A stretch of 50,565 nt of DNA from Rickettsiales bacterium (lineage in GTDB: Bacteria; Pseudomonadota; Alphaproteobacteria; Rs-D84). Shown here piece after piece: positions 5,666 to 41,603 of the stretch. The translations under genes and the position numbers were made by a program. How positions within the stretch are numbered: the first letter of the stretch is position 1; each line of letters starts with the position of its first letter. The DNA lies in contig JAIRRC010000016.1 of NCBI GenBank assembly GCA_031256175.1, forward strand, positions 1 to 50,565, written 5' to 3'. The notes beneath the pieces are model-generated. The model ran no database searches. It saw only the letters and a program-made list of their open reading frames with translations, and had not been told where the DNA came from.

Positions 5666-6427
5666 ATGCCTGCGAACATCATAAGTCCGAAATTAAAGCC
5701 AAGGCCCGAAAATCCAGAAGAAATACTTTCGAATCCGGACTACACCATTTTCGATTCCTATCACAACTATGCCTATGCGCTCGGCCGCTGGGCCGATACT
5801 ACCGGCACAGACCCGAAGGATAAATCCGATTCCAACAACGATATGCTCCGCGTTCTGACCCCAAGCGGAATAGACACCGGCTTCATCGCCCCGCGCGGGT
5901 TCGTCCATTTCGAAGGGCTTTACCATGACGCCGTTATCATCGCGCTCGTCGCGCTGCTGAAAAACGCCAAGAGCGTCAATATGAACGGGCAGGAAATCAC
6001 GACCAGAACCGTGCTTATGCAGCAAAGGGCGAAGGACAAAGGCAAGCATCCGAACAAGTGGGACATATCGGTCGCCGCGCACGTGCTGGCCCAGGATATT
6101 CTGCCAAGCAACGGAATTTACCGCGAGCTTGCGGAAGAGCTCGACGCGCGGCTTCCGGAAGACATCCAGATGCGCGACTTCCAGCACTTCAAATCCTTCA
6201 TCAAGCAGGAAGTCATTTCGGGAAACAACCTCGAGAACCAGTATTACCACGGCTATGTCTTCTATGTCGACCCGACCGCGCTGGACATAAAATATCCCGA
6301 CAAGGAAGTCCAGGCTTCGAAGTATGTGTCGCTTCCCGAAATCCGCGAGATGGCCAATAAAGACCTGCTTCATCCGCGGACCGAATGGATAGAGCCGCTG
6401 GCCGGCGCAATCCTTAGGATTCGATAA
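5666..6427 (+). CDS. NUDIX hydrolase, IPP isomerase type 1/YfcD-like
   Basis: GLYH, VLMQQRAKDKGKHPNKWDISVAAHV and RELAEELD Nudix-box-like segment; EVQASKYV tail motif. Confidence 0.75.
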   Translation: MPANIISPKLKPRPENPEEILSNPDYTIFDSYHNYAYALGRWADTTGTDPKDKSDSNNDMLRVLTPSGIDTGFIAPRGFVHFEGLYHDAVIIALVALLKNAKSVNMNGQEITTRTVLMQQRAKDKGKHPNKWDISVAAHVLAQDILPSNGIYRELAEELDARLPEDIQMRDFQHFKSFIKQEVISGNNLENQYYHGYVFYVDPTALDIKYPDKEVQASKYVSLPEIREMANKDLLHPRTEWIEPLAGAILRIR

Positions 6428-6470
6428 AACCCTTGAAAAACCAAATTAGTCTGATATAGTGTCCGGCGAC

Positions 6471-6560
6471 GGACGGGTGGCAGAGCGGTTGATTGTACCG
6501 CACTCGAAATGCGGCATACTCGCAAGGGTATCGTGGGTTCAAATCCCACCCCGTCCGCCA
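6471..6560 (+). tRNA. tRNA-Ser(CGA)
   Basis: Acceptor GGACGGG/CCCGTCC, discriminator G, encoded CCA; anticodon arm CCGCA-CTCGAAA-TGCGG; long variable arm; GTTCAAATC T-loop. Confidence 0.97.
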
Positions 6561-6676
6561 GAATGTTTCCGTGCGTCATCCTTCGTTCCCTCGCGAGGCG
6601 CACCAACAATTCGCCACTAACAACGCGGCTCATTGGGTGCTTGTTCGCTCGTGCTCAAATCCCACCCCGTCCGCCA
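6561..6676 (+). mobile_element. tRNA-linked 94-bp structured element plus exact 22-bp duplicate of the tRNA-Ser 3' end
   Basis: 6655..6676 is identical to 6539..6560; internal sequence is homologous to 41186..41278 and 41380..41474. Mobility is inferred, not shown. Confidence 0.75.
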
Positions 6677-6737
6677 TCCGCCTTCGCTTACGCTCCGGCG
6701 CGATTGGCGAAACAAATCGGGGCGGCGGTTTTTAGGC
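6671..6737 (+). repeat. 67-bp direct repeat, copy 1 (terminator-like multi-hairpin)
   Basis: Matches 8003..8069 with 3 mismatches; starts with the tRNA end CCGCCA and finishes in a GC stem plus T-run. Confidence 0.9.
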
Positions 6738-6777
6738 AAACCTATATCTAGCCCCAAAGTTGATAGTCAACAGGGCG

Positions 6778-7281
6778 TCAGTTGGAAGGTTCTTTCAGGA
6801 TACCCTCCCTTAGCAAGGCGTCTTCAAGAAATTCATATTGTTTAAGGATAATCTTTTTATTAGGTTCGGCCAACATTTCTTTTGCATCTTTTTCAAGATT
6901 TTCCTCTATCCTTTGCAGGAACGCGTCATTGTTTCCCCTTTGCTTTGCCCTTCGTTTATATTCTTCTTTGCTATATATATTTGGAACGGCCAAAATGCAA
7001 TCCACACCTCTTTCCCTAAGCAAGTCATAAATAATTTTGCCCGGAGCTACCAAAACAACTTCGTATTTTTTCATGGCTTCGATAACCGCGTCGACATAAT
7101 TGTTCGGCCAATACGGATTTATTTCTCTTTGAGTGGATTTCAAGGATTCTGGTGGCATACTTTTCTGTTCATCAGTTAACAGATACTTATAATTCCCGCT
7201 TGCGATTTCTGTAACATTTTTATAATTTTCTATGATAAATGTTTTGCCCGCGCAAATCCACGCACTAATCACAAAACTCAT
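6778..7281 (-). CDS. Hypothetical P-loop nucleotide-kinase-like protein
   Basis: SAWICAGKT Walker-A-like N-terminus; ATG 7281 with AAGGA upstream, 1 nt after the fic stop; AT-rich; similar layout to 34447..34941. Confidence 0.7.
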   Translation of the reverse strand: MSFVISAWICAGKTFIIENYKNVTEIASGNYKYLLTDEQKSMPPESLKSTQREINPYWPNNYVDAVIEAMKKYEVVLVAPGKIIYDLLRERGVDCILAVPNIYSKEEYKRRAKQRGNNDAFLQRIEENLEKDAKEMLAEPNKKIILKQYEFLEDALLREGILKEPSN

Positions 7282-7282
7282 T

Positions 7283-7888
7283 TTATAGTTCCTTAGTTTT
7301 GAATTCGTCATATCCTTCGTAATAATAGCTGACGTCTATGCCTTTCATGAACAGCTCGCGCTCGTTTGTCCTGCCAGTCAAAGCGCCTTTTAGCAGGTGC
7401 TTTATCTCGGCGCTATTCACGGGACTGCGCTCCATCGCGGAAAGATAGGCCGCCTTGTCTATTTTGTTCCAGTTGACGACCTTCTTCAACTCTTTCTTCA
7501 ATATCAAGTCCAGCCATATACGCGTCGCGCGGCCGTTGCCTTCGCGGAAGGGGTGGGCGATATTCATCTCGACATACTTGTCGACAATCTCGTCGAAGGT
7601 CTTTTGCGGCATTTTGTCGATGTGCTTCAAAGATTGCGGCAGGTGCATGAGTGGAGCGAAACGGAAGCTGCTTTTGGCGATGTTCACGTCGCGTATTTTC
7701 CCGGCAAAGTCGTAAATCCCGCCGAATAGGAACTTGTGTATTTGGCACAAGCCGATGAAGGTGCCGACCTTCACCTTGTCGATTTTTCCGCTATCGAAGA
7801 AAATCCTTGCCTGCTGCTTGCTGATTTTCTCTTCTGTCTTGTTAAGTTCGACCTGATTCGCGATGTTTAATTTGTTTTTCAATACCAT
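7283..7888 (-). CDS. fic: Fic-domain AMPylase, class III (NmFic-like)
   Basis: Catalytic [12 protein letters not shown] and C-terminal inhibitory SYYYEG, which fits (S/T)xxxE(G/N). Confidence 0.93.
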
Positions 7889-8002
7889 TTTTTGCGCCCT
7901 CTGAATATACTACATTATAGCCCGGGAAAAACGAGAAATCCATCTTATTATTCGGTAGATTTGGGCATTCTTATATGCCGCCATATACTCAGGAATCCTG
8001 CA

Positions 8003-8069
8003 CCGCCATCCGCCTTCGCTTACGCTCCGGCGCGATTGGCGAAGCAAATCGGGGCGGTGGTTTTCAGGC
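8003..8069 (+). repeat. 67-bp direct repeat, copy 2
   Basis: 64 of 67 positions identical to 6671..6737. Confidence 0.9.
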
Positions 8070-8186
8070 GAATATATAATAATGCCCGAAAGTCGATAGC
8101 CTGATGATAGATGGCTAAATTACACGTTGACAAACGTTTTGTATGGCATAATATGATAAAAAATCCAGAATTATAAGGAATTAGCC

Positions 8187-11382: not shown

Positions 11383-12786
11383 ATGAACGGCAAGATAAAC
11401 ACGAGGATAACGCTTAAAGCCCTCGCAATCGGGGCTTTGGCGCTTATTATGCTGATTCCGCTTTTGTTCGTTTCCGGCGTAATCGACGGGCGCCTGAACT
11501 ACCGCGACGAGGCCGCCAAAAAAATCACCAACGCATGGGGCGGGCCGCTGCTTGTCGCCGCGCCGGTCCTTAACATCCCTTATAAGGTTCAGATAACCGA
11601 CGACAGGACGAAGGCCGTTTCCTATGAAACCCGCTGGCTTAAAGTCGCGCCGAAAGAAGCGCTAAGCGCCGCAGACATAAAAACCCAGACGCGCTATATC
11701 GGAATTTTCAGGGTGCCGGTTTATACCGCCGACATTTCCATCAAGGGCAAGTTCGACATAGCGGGCGCGATAAAAGGAAAGGAAAACCTTAGCGTGTCCG
11801 GCGCCTTCATCACGCTGGAACTGAACGACCTTAAAGGCATGGGCGTGGAATCGCCCGTTCTTAAATGGAACGGCAAGGCGCACGAATTCGAACCGATGAC
11901 AAACGGCAAGACGCTGTCGGCCGGCGTGCCGACCCAAAGGGATTTGGACAGCGGAAGCTGGGACATGAATTCCAGCAAAGGCTTTTATCGCAACCGCGAA
12001 ATAAGCGCGGACCTGAAAGCCCTTAGCACCGCGGTCAATGCGAAAGCCGCAAGCGCGGATTTTGAAATCAGCTTCAATATCAAGGGGAGCCGCAGCATAA
12101 GCTTCGCGCCGATTGCGGGCAAGCACACCATCGCCGTCAAATCCGACTGGACGAACCCGAGTTTTTATGGAAGCTTTCTGCCCGACGAAAAGAACGTCGA
12201 CGGCGCCGGATTTTCCGCGCGGTGGGACATCGGCAACCTTGCGTCCGGAATTCCGACGACCGATTTAAGCAAGGCCGACCTTTCCGGTGTCATAATAACC
12301 AGCGCGTTCTTGGTGCCGGTCGACAATTACCGCAGCGCGGAGCGGGCGCTTAAATACGGAATCCTGTTCATCATACTGACGTTCCTTGCGTGCTTCATTT
12401 TCGAAATCGCGAGCGGGCGGCCGATACACCCATTCCAGTATCTGCTTGTCGGTTTCGCGATGGCGATATTCTATATCCTGCTTGTGTCGCTGTCCGAATT
12501 CATGGCGTTTTCGTTGGCTTATATAATAGCCGCGCTTGCCACAACCGGGCTGATAACCGCGTATATAAAGACCGCAGTGGTCAAGAACCTGGACAGGCGG
12601 AGCGCGGGAATCGTATTCGGCGCTTTCGCGGCATTGTACGGATACCTTTATATTCTTCTGTTGCTGCAAGACATGGCTTTGATATTCGGCGCAATCGGAC
12701 TCTTCATCGGTCTTGCGGCGGCGATGTATGCGACAAAGAATATCAAGTGGTATGAAGCCATACAGGCGCCCGCCAAAAAGAAATAG
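11383..12786 (+). CDS. creD: Inner-membrane protein CreD
   Basis: PVDNYRSAERALKYGILFI and IHPFQYLLVG...LLVSLSE motifs; one N-terminal and several C-terminal TM helices. Confidence 0.92.
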   Translation: MNGKINTRITLKALAIGALALIMLIPLLFVSGVIDGRLNYRDEAAKKITNAWGGPLLVAAPVLNIPYKVQITDDRTKAVSYETRWLKVAPKEALSAADIKTQTRYIGIFRVPVYTADISIKGKFDIAGAIKGKENLSVSGAFITLELNDLKGMGVESPVLKWNGKAHEFEPMTNGKTLSAGVPTQRDLDSGSWDMNSSKGFYRNREISADLKALSTAVNAKAASADFEISFNIKGSRSISFAPIAGKHTIAVKSDWTNPSFYGSFLPDEKNVDGAGFSARWDIGNLASGIPTTDLSKADLSGVIITSAFLVPVDNYRSAERALKYGILFIILTFLACFIFEIASGRPIHPFQYLLVGFAMAIFYILLVSLSEFMAFSLAYIIAALATTGLITAYIKTAVVKNLDRRSAGIVFGAFAALYGYLYILLLLQDMALIFGAIGLFIGLAAAMYATKNIKWYEAIQAPAKKK

Positions 12787-40401: not shown

Positions 40402-41052
40402 ATGAAAAAGCTTTTAATGATTTTATCGGCGTTGGTTTTTATTTCCAATCCCGTTTTGGCGGACGAAGAGGCCGACGACGAATTCGACTTGAAATTGGAC
40501 AAGTATATATCGGTGAAATTGGGCGCGACCAAATGGCTTGATTCGTATGGCAATCCGCGTTCCGACGCTTGGGCCGTCGCGTTAGGCGTAGGCAAGGAAC
40601 TGGACGATTTCGCCATCCGGGCCGAGCTGGAGCTTTCAATGCAAGGCTTCGCGAAAGATTCGGAATGGAATATCGACGCCGGAAACCGGGGCTATTATAA
40701 TTTGGAAAACACCACCGGCGTTTTTCTTTTGAACGGATATATTGATTTGATGCCCGGGTATAGGGCGCGGCCTTATTTCAGCCTTGGTCTGGGATTTGTG
40801 GCGGCCGACAATTTCGTGGATTCGGAATCGAGATGGACTTACGGGGGCGGCGGCTGGGGCTATGAATCCGAATGGGGCGGCGAAACGACGTTTTCATTCG
40901 CGTCAAGCTTGGGCGCCGGTGTCAGCGTCAATTTGATTCACGGCTTCGCGCTGGACGCTGGCGCAAGATTCATATTCACAAGCAAAGACACAGAAAACGA
41001 AAACAGCAAAACGATGTTCAATGCGTCCTTGGGGTTAAGGTATACTTTCTAA
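40402..41052 (+). CDS. Outer-membrane beta-barrel protein (paralogue of 36393..37037)
   Basis: Signal peptide; IRAELELS, FLLNGYIDL..RARPYFSLGLG, ALDAGARF, GLRYTF. Confidence 0.85.
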   Translation: MKKLLMILSALVFISNPVLADEEADDEFDLKLDKYISVKLGATKWLDSYGNPRSDAWAVALGVGKELDDFAIRAELELSMQGFAKDSEWNIDAGNRGYYNLENTTGVFLLNGYIDLMPGYRARPYFSLGLGFVAADNFVDSESRWTYGGGGWGYESEWGGETTFSFASSLGAGVSVNLIHGFALDAGARFIFTSKDTENENSKTMFNASLGLRYTF

Positions 41053-41059
41053 AAACTAC

Positions 41060-41088
41060 TTGCAATTTCGTGGGGCGGCCGTTAGAAT
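41060..41088 (+). promoter_or_regulatory. Promoter of the tRNA-Leu/tRNA-Cys unit
   Basis: TTGCAA-N17-TAGAAT followed by a GC-containing discriminator region. Confidence 0.7.
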
Positions 41089-41100
41089 TGGGCGTGTTTT

Positions 41101-41185
41101 GCGGATATGGCGAAATTGGTAGACGCGCAGCACTAAGGATGCTGTGTCGAAAGACTTGGGAGTTCGAGTCTCCCTATCCGCACCA
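41101..41185 (+). tRNA. tRNA-Leu(AAG)
   Basis: Acceptor GCGGATA/TATCCGC, discriminator A, CCA; anticodon arm CAGCA-CTAAGGA-TGCTG; variable arm GTC-GAAA-GAC; T-arm GGGAG-TTCGAGT-CTCCC. Confidence 0.93.
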
Positions 41186-41300
41186 GAAGGCCTGTGCGTG
41201 CCTTCCCTCGTTCCCTCGCGACGCGCACATCTTTTCGCCGCTAACAACGCGGCTCAAAGTGTGCTTATTCGCTCGTGCTCGAGTCTCCCTATCCGCACCA
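41186..41300 (+). mobile_element. tRNA-linked 93-bp element plus exact 22-bp duplicate of the tRNA-Leu 3' end
   Basis: 41279..41300 is identical to 41164..41185; homologous to 6561..6654. Confidence 0.75.
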
Positions 41301-41305
41301 TGTTT

Positions 41306-41379
41306 GGCTCGGTGGCAGAGTGGTTATGCAGAGGACTGCAAATCCTTGTATGCCGGTTCGATTCCGACCCGGGCCTCCA
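41306..41379 (+). tRNA. tRNA-Cys(GCA)
   Basis: Acceptor GGCTCGG/CCGGGCC, discriminator T, CCA; anticodon loop CTGCAAA; one C-A mismatch in the T-stem. Confidence 0.95.
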
Positions 41380-41496
41380 AAATTTTGAAGTGCGCCATCC
41401 ATCGTTCTCTCGCGACACGCACATCAAAAAATCCCCTAATAACGGGGATTTTCTGTGCGCTTATACGCTCGTGCTCGATTCCGACCCGGGCCTCCA
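41380..41496 (+). mobile_element. tRNA-linked 95-bp element plus exact 22-bp duplicate of the tRNA-Cys 3' end
   Basis: 41475..41496 is identical to 41358..41379; shares all conserved blocks with the other two copies. Confidence 0.75.
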
Positions 41497-41500
41497 AAAT

Positions 41501-41525
41501 AAAAGACCCCTTAAAGGGGTCTTTT
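41501..41525 (+). terminator. Intrinsic terminator of the tRNA unit
   Basis: AAAAGACCCC-TTAAA-GGGGTCTTTT. Confidence 0.85.
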
Positions 41526-41558
41526 ATTTTGGAGGCCTATTGCGCGGGCTTTATTACC

Positions 41559-41584
41559 TGGATTCCGGCTTTCGCTGGAATGAC
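41559..41584. repeat. REP-like palindrome, copy 2
   Basis: TGGATTCCGGC-TTTC-GCTGGAATGAC. Confidence 0.7.
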
Positions 41585-41603
41585 TAAATAGGGCCGGGAG
41601 TTT

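Follow-up and report, generated by a model that had tools for sequence, protein, structure and literature searches.

Each of the three tRNA genes in the contig JAIRRC010000016.1 of a Rickettsiales bacterium (assembly GCA_031256175.1; 50,565 nt, the whole stretch of DNA that was analyzed, hereafter the window) is followed directly by a short homologous insert, here termed E, and then by a second, identical copy of the final 22 nt of the tRNA gene in question, from T-loop position 55 to the encoded CCA (Table 1). The explanation that we favor, tentatively and at somewhat less than an even chance, is that E is a cargo-less, non-autonomous insertion anchored at the T-loop; on insertion the 22-nt tRNA end would be duplicated or brought along, the tRNA would stay intact, and the two would be transcribed together.

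ARAGORN and Rfam concordantly gave exactly three tRNAs in the window, tRNA-Ser(CGA), tRNA-Leu(AAG), and tRNA-Cys(GCA), and E plus a duplicate is present behind all three. An initial annotation, made from the sequence alone, had described a perfect 22-bp copy of the tRNA end at each locus and a junction that tracks tRNA position 55 rather than a shared attachment (att) sequence; the coordinates agree exactly with this description, and each of the three loci has a different 22-mer. At position 55 the repeat has a sharp left edge, because the base immediately 5′ of the duplicate is C at all three loci where the tRNA has T54. The right-hand limit of the Cys repeat is ambiguous by 4 nt, since identity with the tRNA flank runs past CCA through a shared AAAT. 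No other copies of the 22-mers were found in the window, even at up to five mismatches, and the chance expectation for recurrence of an exact 22-mer in 50 kb is about 1e-8 by our own arithmetic. In a background set of 30 tRNAs from unrelated and related loci, the sole downstream repeat of a tRNA 3′ end was an adjoining tRNA gene. Across the three loci, 66 of the 66 duplicated bases are unchanged.

Table 1. Coordinates of the tRNA genes, E copies, duplicates, and transcription signals in the window, and of post-CCA elements and partial tRNA copies in related genomes (prefixed by locus).
Feature	Position	Strand	Remarks
Sigma-70-like promoter, tRNA-Ser unit	6433-6460	+	TTGAAA-16-TATAGT
tRNA-Ser(CGA)	6471-6560	+	intact, CCA encoded, 55.4 bits
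E copy 1, behind tRNA-Ser	6561-6654	+	94 nt; GTGCG...CGCAC stem encloses TCGTTCCCTCGCGA; first 10 nt variable
E copy 1, central hairpin	6613-6629	+	
E copy 1, terminal CGCTCGTGC	6646-6654	+	
Duplicate of tRNA-Ser positions 55-76 (TCAAATCCCACCCCGTCCGCCA)	6655-6676	+	exact match to 6539-6560
Sigma-70-like promoter, tRNA-Leu/tRNA-Cys operon	41060-41088	+	TTGCAA-17-TAGAAT; conserved in relative
tRNA-Leu(AAG)	41101-41185	+	intact (ARAGORN, Rfam)
E copy 2, behind tRNA-Leu	41186-41278	+	93 nt; central hairpin 41237-41253; terminal CGCTCGTGC 41270-41278
Duplicate of tRNA-Leu positions 55-76	41279-41300	+	exact match to 41164-41185
tRNA-Cys(GCA)	41306-41379	+	intact (ARAGORN, Rfam)
E copy 3, behind tRNA-Cys	41380-41474	+	95 nt; central hairpin 41428-41452; terminal CGCTCGTGC 41466-41474
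Duplicate of tRNA-Cys positions 55-76	41475-41496	+	exact match to 41358-41379
Terminator-like hairpin and T run	41501-41530	+	AAAAGACCCC TTAAA GGGGTCTTTT ATTTT; read from the sequence
Element E2	L122:11859-11932		
Element E2	L134:15279-15349	-	
Element E2	L179:6389-6462	-	
Element E2	L177:10657-10730	-	
Element E2, two copies	L186:12023-12104, 12187-12277		
tRNA-Leu(GAG) partial-copy locus	L177:10732-10988	-	same in L178
tRNA-Leu(GAG) partial-copy locus	L183:2229-2482	-	also L184

Alignment of the inserts bears out the proposed homology over 93–95 nt, including the conserved blocks that had been listed. Mean column identity across the three E copies is 82%, with pairwise identities of 79% (Ser–Leu), 70% (Ser–Cys), and 66% (Leu–Cys), and neither nhmmer nor a covariance model detected further E in the window. 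Conservation is unevenly distributed: the first 10 nt after CCA are nearly unalignable (2–5 of 10 identical), the blocks GTGCG, TCGTTC(C/T)CTCGCGA, and CGCAC are invariant or almost so, and the last 9 nt (CGCTCGTGC) are invariant in all three copies and abut T55 exactly. The shape of the central hairpin is kept via compensatory changes (GCCGC/GCGGC, GCCAC/GCGGC, and, in the Cys copy, TCCCC/GGGGA).

Two competing folds can be drawn for E: a GTGCGTx/xGCGCAC stem around the TCGTTC block, or a long imperfect hairpin. By direct reading, the stem comprises 7 bp in the Ser and Leu copies and 5 bp in the Cys copy, with one G-C/C-G swap between Ser and Leu and a T-G wobble in both; it was judged by eye, as MAFFT sets the Leu copy 2 nt out of register. 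In the lowest helix of the long hairpin, four E bases (nTCG) pair with T-loop bases 56–59 of the duplicate, and n is the complement of T-loop base 59 in every copy (C-G, A-T, and T-A). The strand signal is contradictory, in that three A-C mismatches of the long hairpin on the + strand become G-U on the - strand, whereas the GTGCG stem has its T-G on the + strand. With n = 3 sequences, the evidence on fold and strand is suggestive only. Between E and its host tRNA we found no own-tRNA-specific complementarity of at least 6 nt, runs of 6–7 nt being equally frequent with the other tRNAs; an antisense or acceptor-mimic role was dropped on the grounds that nothing own-tRNA-specific goes beyond the 4-nt T-loop pairing. 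An acceptor-like helix for the duplicate was likewise not found in E.

E and its duplicates lie sense-oriented within the tRNA transcription units, between the promoter and a terminator-like hairpin, and E is therefore expected to be co-transcribed with the tRNA. E and the duplicate behind tRNA-Leu occupy the Leu–Cys spacer, with a gap of 5 nt (TGTTT) between that duplicate and tRNA-Cys. At the tRNA/E loci, + strand promoters were found only 5′ of the tRNAs, and no - strand promoters were found. The hairpin after the Cys duplicate was identified by direct reading together with alignment; a simple scan did not report it.

The initial annotation had proposed a search for empty orthologous loci, and these were found for tRNA-Leu(AAG) and tRNA-Cys(GCA) in the nearest relative, a metagenome-assembled genome (MAG) labelled Rickettsiales bacterium, in which the carbonic anhydrase beside tRNA-Cys is 67% identical and the contig is partly syntenic. 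The Leu–Cys operon of this relative (L122 and L123) has the same promoter and the same two tRNAs, with 3′ ends identical to those in the window, and contains neither E nor the 22-nt duplicate. A terminator hairpin lies directly 3′ of its tRNA-Cys and is orthologous to the window hairpin that follows the Cys duplicate: the flank after the relative's tRNA-Cys aligns with the window flank after the duplicate with a score of 15, versus -10 for the window sequence directly after tRNA-Cys (control). Because the relative is without both E and the duplicate, and its terminator aligns after the window duplicate, E plus 22 nt behaves as an insertion. For tRNA-Ser, the orthologous site was not found in the relatives, one of which has an orthologue of the neighboring NUDIX gene without an adjoining tRNA-Ser. 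The 82-nt Leu–Cys spacer of the nearest relative was considered as faint kin of E and dropped (shuffling p = 0.2–0.4). The tRNAs themselves differ slightly between the two genomes: tRNA-Cys has a T4-G69 wobble in the window (41306-41379) versus C4-G69 in the relative (L122:11941-12014), and the tRNA-Leu variable arm differs at four positions.

Based on these features, we infer that E would have entered three different tRNA genes at one structural point, which can be described equally well as lying between T54 and T55 or as lying right after CCA with a copy of positions 55–76 attached. Because the last 22 nt flank E on both sides, the upstream copy stays a complete tRNA gene and the insertion would be harmless. 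A mobilizing enzyme encoded elsewhere would recognize the conserved T-loop box and could act in one of two ways. It might (a) make cuts staggered by 22 nt and anchored on the T-loop box; since T55–A76 spans 22 nt in every tRNA with an encoded CCA, a fixed 22-nt ruler would always reach the gene end. Alternatively, (b) a T-loop-class tyrosine integrase might act in trans on an attP-like unit (E plus the 22-mer), the core of which would be swapped for each tRNA. The invariant 3′ junction and ragged 5′ junction of E would fit an asymmetric reaction, for example one that is target-primed or one-ended. Once inserted, E would be co-transcribed and probably released as an RNA of ~115 nt with a second CCA end, like the RtT repeats of Escherichia coli.

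Several observations weigh against such an insertion. E has no terminal inverted repeats by direct reading, its left end (GAAKG.../AAATT...) being unrelated to the reverse-complemented right end (GCACGAGCG...), and its only inverted structure is the internal imperfect palindrome. The divergence of the copies is unlike that of a recent burst and argues against a recently active simple miniature inverted-repeat transposable element (MITE). Had the duplicates drifted at the average rate of E since a common ancestor, about nine changes would be expected (our estimate, from three-way distances) versus none seen; unchanged 22-mers beside diverged inserts imply selection on the 22-mer, homogenization against the tRNA 116 nt upstream, or recent insertions from diverged masters. 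Scans against Pfam, NCBIfam, and PHROGs detected no integrase (PF00589), transposase, reverse transcriptase (RT), HUH nuclease, or Cas1 among the window open reading frames (ORFs), only housekeeping genes and a Fic gene, in keeping with the earlier statement that the window encodes no mobilizer. No transposase is known to make a 22-bp stagger, and a 116-bp circle would be an awkward integrase substrate. The empty-site evidence comes from one distant relative and covers the Leu and Cys loci. Finally, no copy of E outside the window, and no longer, enzyme-bearing version, was found in the collections searched.

Rfam returned only tRNAs and noise for E, both at the gathering threshold and at E ≤ 10, and blastn gave no match among PLSDB plasmids and GenBank phages. 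Pattern scans of IMG/VR yielded chance matches only; in JGI metagenome contigs, the two-block pattern TCGTTCNCTCGCGAN{40,65}CGCTCGTGC had 10 matches, all of them chance occurrences in coding sequence. In GTDB genome contigs, the pattern TNCGCTCGTGCTCRANNC gave 120 chance matches, none with other E blocks, this pattern being too loose to test presence. All such scans demand exact conserved blocks, so that diverged relatives of E would escape them. The further copies that the initial annotation had suggested seeking in relatives did not materialize in ~215 kb of related MAG loci searched with nhmmer and covariance model R1. Full-text literature searches found no description of this geometry across three different tRNAs.

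A bolder form of the insertion explanation, which we regard as unlikely, takes E as the footprint left by an insertion system not yet described, one that would recognize the structure of tRNA genes (the T-loop box) and not a single att sequence. Were this so, any tRNA gene could be entered without inactivation by duplicating exactly T55–A76; candidate enzymes would be a ruler-type Cas1-like integrase, an RT target-primed from a T-loop nick, or an RT that copies tRNA ends. Most tRNA genes of this genome would then carry E, and the 22-mer, together with the E base that covaries with base 59, would be working parts (for target recognition, or as a guide) rather than passive scars.

The alternative that survives best, possible but on balance doubtful, is that E plus the 22-mer forms a host-maintained tRNA-trailer RNA module, which by analogy with RtT would be cut by tRNA-processing enzymes to a CCA-ended RNA of the same ~115 nt. 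Selection would hold its 3′ part as a tRNA end, for example as a mimic of or competitor for a reader of tRNA 3′ ends, or as an aid to folding or processing. This proposal carries real weight because of the unchanged 22-mers, the position of E within transcription units, the RtT precedent, and the direct repeats around a hairpin, which would be prone to deletion yet are kept at all three tRNAs. It is also consistent with the constant sense orientation of E between promoter and terminator-like hairpin, with block-wise conservation and compensatory changes in both the central hairpin and the GTGCGTx/xGCGCAC stem, and with the identity of all 66 duplicated bases despite the divergence of E. In related genomes, a different structured element, E2 (described below), sits directly post-CCA behind at least five different tRNAs, and the annotated small RNA (sRNA) RttR of E. 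coli has the same geometry as E. On the other hand, E shows neither own-tRNA-specific complementarity nor an acceptor-like helix, unlike the GGGGAAGGA/TCCTTCCCC pairing of RtT, and the G-U versus A-C evidence is contradictory as to strand (the long hairpin favors the - strand at three pairs). A trailer function would still require a mechanism of spreading, although its route into three operons is of lesser concern on this view, and the nearest relative manages without E. Insertion and trailer function are not exclusive, as E could have spread by insertion and been retained through use. A functional trailer RNA was one of two interpretations offered in the initial annotation, and it gains weight from the location of E inside transcription units, the shared geometry of RttR, and the structured post-CCA elements of relatives; overall, the interpretation given in that annotation is partly supported.

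It is improbable that each of the three loci is what remains of its own larger integrase-borne island, with attL in the tRNA gene and attR as the displaced fragment, from which the cargo was deleted. Islands are classically recognized by a tRNA gene and, downstream of it, a 3′ fragment that begins in the T-loop (PMC4383910), and the tRNA-Ser locus has a second integrase-less islet with direct repeats of ~95 bp. However, the inserts are homologous over their full length with the same end points, which three independent deletions would not yield, and the window contains no integrase remnant.

Local tandem duplication of a tRNA gene, with the second copy then losing its 5′ part through decay, is more improbable still. 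Such decay is plausible for the tRNA-Leu(GAG) locus of relatives (L177 and L183), in which a partial copy from about position 14 to CCA receives a weak Infernal tRNA score (21 bits); it does not account for one and the same 94-nt sequence at the Ser, Leu, and Cys loci, or for a boundary that falls sharply at 54|55 in each of them.

We give very little credence to E as the remnant of an insertion sequence of the IS200/IS605 type, or of another single-strand transposon that makes no duplication, whose right end would read into the flank to give an omega-RNA-like scaffold with a 22-nt tRNA-matching guide. Such a remnant would fit the succession of a conserved, scaffold-like stretch of 94 nt and a variable one of guide-like length (22 nt), the asymmetric, conserved 3′ end of E, and the four E nucleotides that can pair with the adjoining T-loop and covary with it at base 59. 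The window encodes no TnpA, TnpB, or IscB, no Rfam family matched, and a nuclease guided by the 22-mer would also match the intact tRNA gene. Insertion without target duplication (IS200/IS605 or IS91-like) was rejected in any case, as removal of E would leave the tRNA plus an extra 55–76 segment, unlike the native site of the relative. The possibility of an assembly artefact or chimera, raised by the metagenome-type contig and its single occurrence in the protein collection, is close to negligible given three loci up to 35 kb apart with three different exact 22-mers, diverged inserts, and a syntenic housekeeping context.

Other sequences follow tRNA genes in the related genomes. E2, which is often present behind their tRNA genes, is a conserved structured element of ~72 nt that starts directly after CCA and forms two hairpins, in which compensatory changes and tandem G-A mismatches are seen. 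It occurs in at least three genomes behind tRNA-Leu(AAG), tRNA-Gly(CCC), tRNA-Arg(CCG), tRNA-Leu(CAG), and tRNA-Ala(CGC), without a tRNA-end repeat. No Rfam family matches E2, and the window does not contain it. The second of its hairpins is also present by itself at other places, for example as three tandem copies at L134:2689-2804, which is REP-like behavior.

In two related genomes, tRNA-Leu(GAG) is followed by an insert of 96–100 nt and then by the partial tRNA copy, which has one mismatch. This insert folds well on the tRNA-sense strand only, and its second hairpin has been swapped for a different one between the two species. At L183 the functional tRNA-Leu(GAG) carries a compensated acceptor-stem change that the partial copy is without. 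The insert ends in CGTGCGAAC, which bears a faint likeness to the CGTGC end of E; no homology to E was detectable. The locus may be no more than a tandem tRNA gene in decay. Its partial copy starts in the D-loop but lies behind an insert unrelated to E, so that it neither supports nor refutes T55 targeting by E. Together, these loci mark conserved post-CCA elements and partially copied tRNAs as a feature of the clade.

Just 3′ of E at the tRNA-Ser locus, a direct repeat of ~95 bp (6671-6765 and 8003-8097; first 76 nt 92% identical) brackets positions 6766-8002. The first 6 nt of the repeat (CCGCCA) are also the final 6 nt of the tRNA-Ser duplicate, and the repeat continues through the downstream hairpin region. 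The 1.3-kb segment between the repeats is lower in GC and contains a gene for an NmFic-type protein adenylyltransferase (7283-7888, - strand) and a 177-aa ORF (6778-7311, - strand; PHROG 4182); it resembles an islet that is without an integrase and lies at the outermost 3′ end of the tRNA-Ser locus. Fic genes of near-equal length and ~80% amino acid identity occur in relatives (L177:10001-10606, L179:5733-6338, and L183:1559-2164), in each case convergent to and just downstream of a tRNA locus, namely Ser in the window and Leu-GAG or Arg-CCG in the relatives. Close homologs were also identified in MAGs labelled Endomicrobia, Chitinivibrionia, and Alphaproteobacteria, which suggests that the tRNA-associated Fic islet has spread horizontally; one set of homologs (L190-L192) lies ~1.7 kb from a phage-type integrase gene. 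Within a single population, the sequence joined to the Fic gene plus E2 is the partial tRNA-Leu(GAG) copy in two JGI assemblies but tRNA-Arg(CCG) in one from ENA (L177 versus L179), reflecting either E2–E2 recombination or a repeat-induced assembly join.

Apart from the Fic gene, the window genes have housekeeping functions (purF, purL, purH, groEL, cysS, dapB, a sodB-type superoxide dismutase, a resistance-nodulation-division (RND) efflux set, and others). The tRNA neighbors are a carbonic anhydrase gene (beside tRNA-Cys), an outer membrane protein gene (beside tRNA-Leu), and a NUDIX gene (beside tRNA-Ser). Spurious long ORFs run through the tRNAs and E at 40872-41591 (+ strand, 239 aa) and 6370-6633 (- strand, 87 aa), and gene callers may label these as hypothetical proteins.

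tRNA genes are classic landing sites for mobile DNA, but the elements known so far are each confined to a single tRNA and encode an integrase of their own. If E is truly mobile at one structural coordinate of three tRNAs, leaving the gene intact each time, its target would be recognized by tRNA-gene structure. Orphan cases like the tyrT/RtT repeats of E. coli would then be readily explained, and the finding would point to a class of CCA-ended trailer RNAs missed by island finders (Islander filters, PMC4383910). If E is only a lineage-specific trailer, it would still be a tidy example of conserved tRNA 3′ external spacers, with relatives having a different one at that place.

Among known systems, RtT (RttR, RF00391) resembles E in having a structured spacer in the tRNA trailer, followed by a copy of the tRNA's own end from the T-loop to CCA. 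The units downstream of tyrV in E. coli K-12 each comprise 159 nt plus AATCCTTCCCCCACCACCA, a 19-mer copy of the tRNA-Tyr end from A58 in the T-loop, and RttR ends exactly at the CCA of the first 19-nt copy. The RtT unit is 178 nt long and tandemly amplified behind one tRNA species, whereas E is a single unit behind three tRNAs with a start at T55; furthermore, the RtT unit holds, by direct reading, an internal complement to its duplicated end, which E is without. RF00391 did not match either window region at E ≤ 10 (positive control, E. coli, 133–138 bits). The geometry is common to RtT and E; the family is not. A fourth RtT unit was noted between tyrT and tyrV (L195, E. coli K-12 1286600-1287700), so that RtT units lie behind both tRNA-Tyr genes, and every unit has a T-arm-like GGTTCGACTCGAG stretch as well as mini-hairpins of the GCGAAGC type.

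Compared with MITEs, E is without terminal inverted repeats, and its 22-nt repeat differs from a short fixed target duplication (2–10 bp); its dispersal amounts to three copies, 66–79% identical, in the 50-kb window. Like repetitive extragenic palindromic sequences (REP/REPIN), E is ~100 nt long and non-coding, contains an imperfect palindrome, and occupies 3′ untranslated positions; unlike them, it occurs only behind tRNAs in 50 kb, has a 22-nt flanking repeat, no inverted termini, and low identity between copies, and no RAYT transposase was found in the window. Casposon or Cas1 integration resembles E in its long target duplication, which starts within the 3′ portion of a tRNA gene without disrupting that gene. 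Casposon target duplications measure ~14–15 bp, versus the 22-nt repeat of E, which has no terminal inverted repeats and lies in a window without cas1, although a mobilizer could act in trans. Cis-mobilizable elements (CIMEs) are integrase-less, att-flanked, kilobase-sized, and tied to one site; E is likewise an integrase-less segment between att-type repeats at an integration hot spot, but is 94 nt long and present at three tRNAs.

Tyrosine-integrase islands that target the T-loop leave a restored tRNA gene (tDNA) and a displaced 3′ fragment, with crossover subsites that include the T-loop (Islander, PMC4383910). The E loci correspond to these in having an intact tDNA and a same-orientation 3′ fragment from the T-loop to the gene end, as well as empty sites in a related genome at Leu(AAG) and Cys(GCA). 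They differ in that such islands contain an integrase and kilobase-scale cargo, whereas the E loci have 93–95 nt with neither, and the same arms at three tRNAs; so short an interval would be discarded by the 2-kb length and integrase filters of Islander (PMC4383910). The choice of target by T-loop integrases follows the attP core: in mycobacteriophage Ms6, altering the 26-nt T-loop attP core redirects integration to other tRNA-Ala genes (PMC1762012). This shows how related elements could serve different tRNAs by core swapping. E combines features of T-loop att duplications with those of RtT-type trailer repeats while having only some of the defining features of each, and its geometry across three different tRNAs is unusual.

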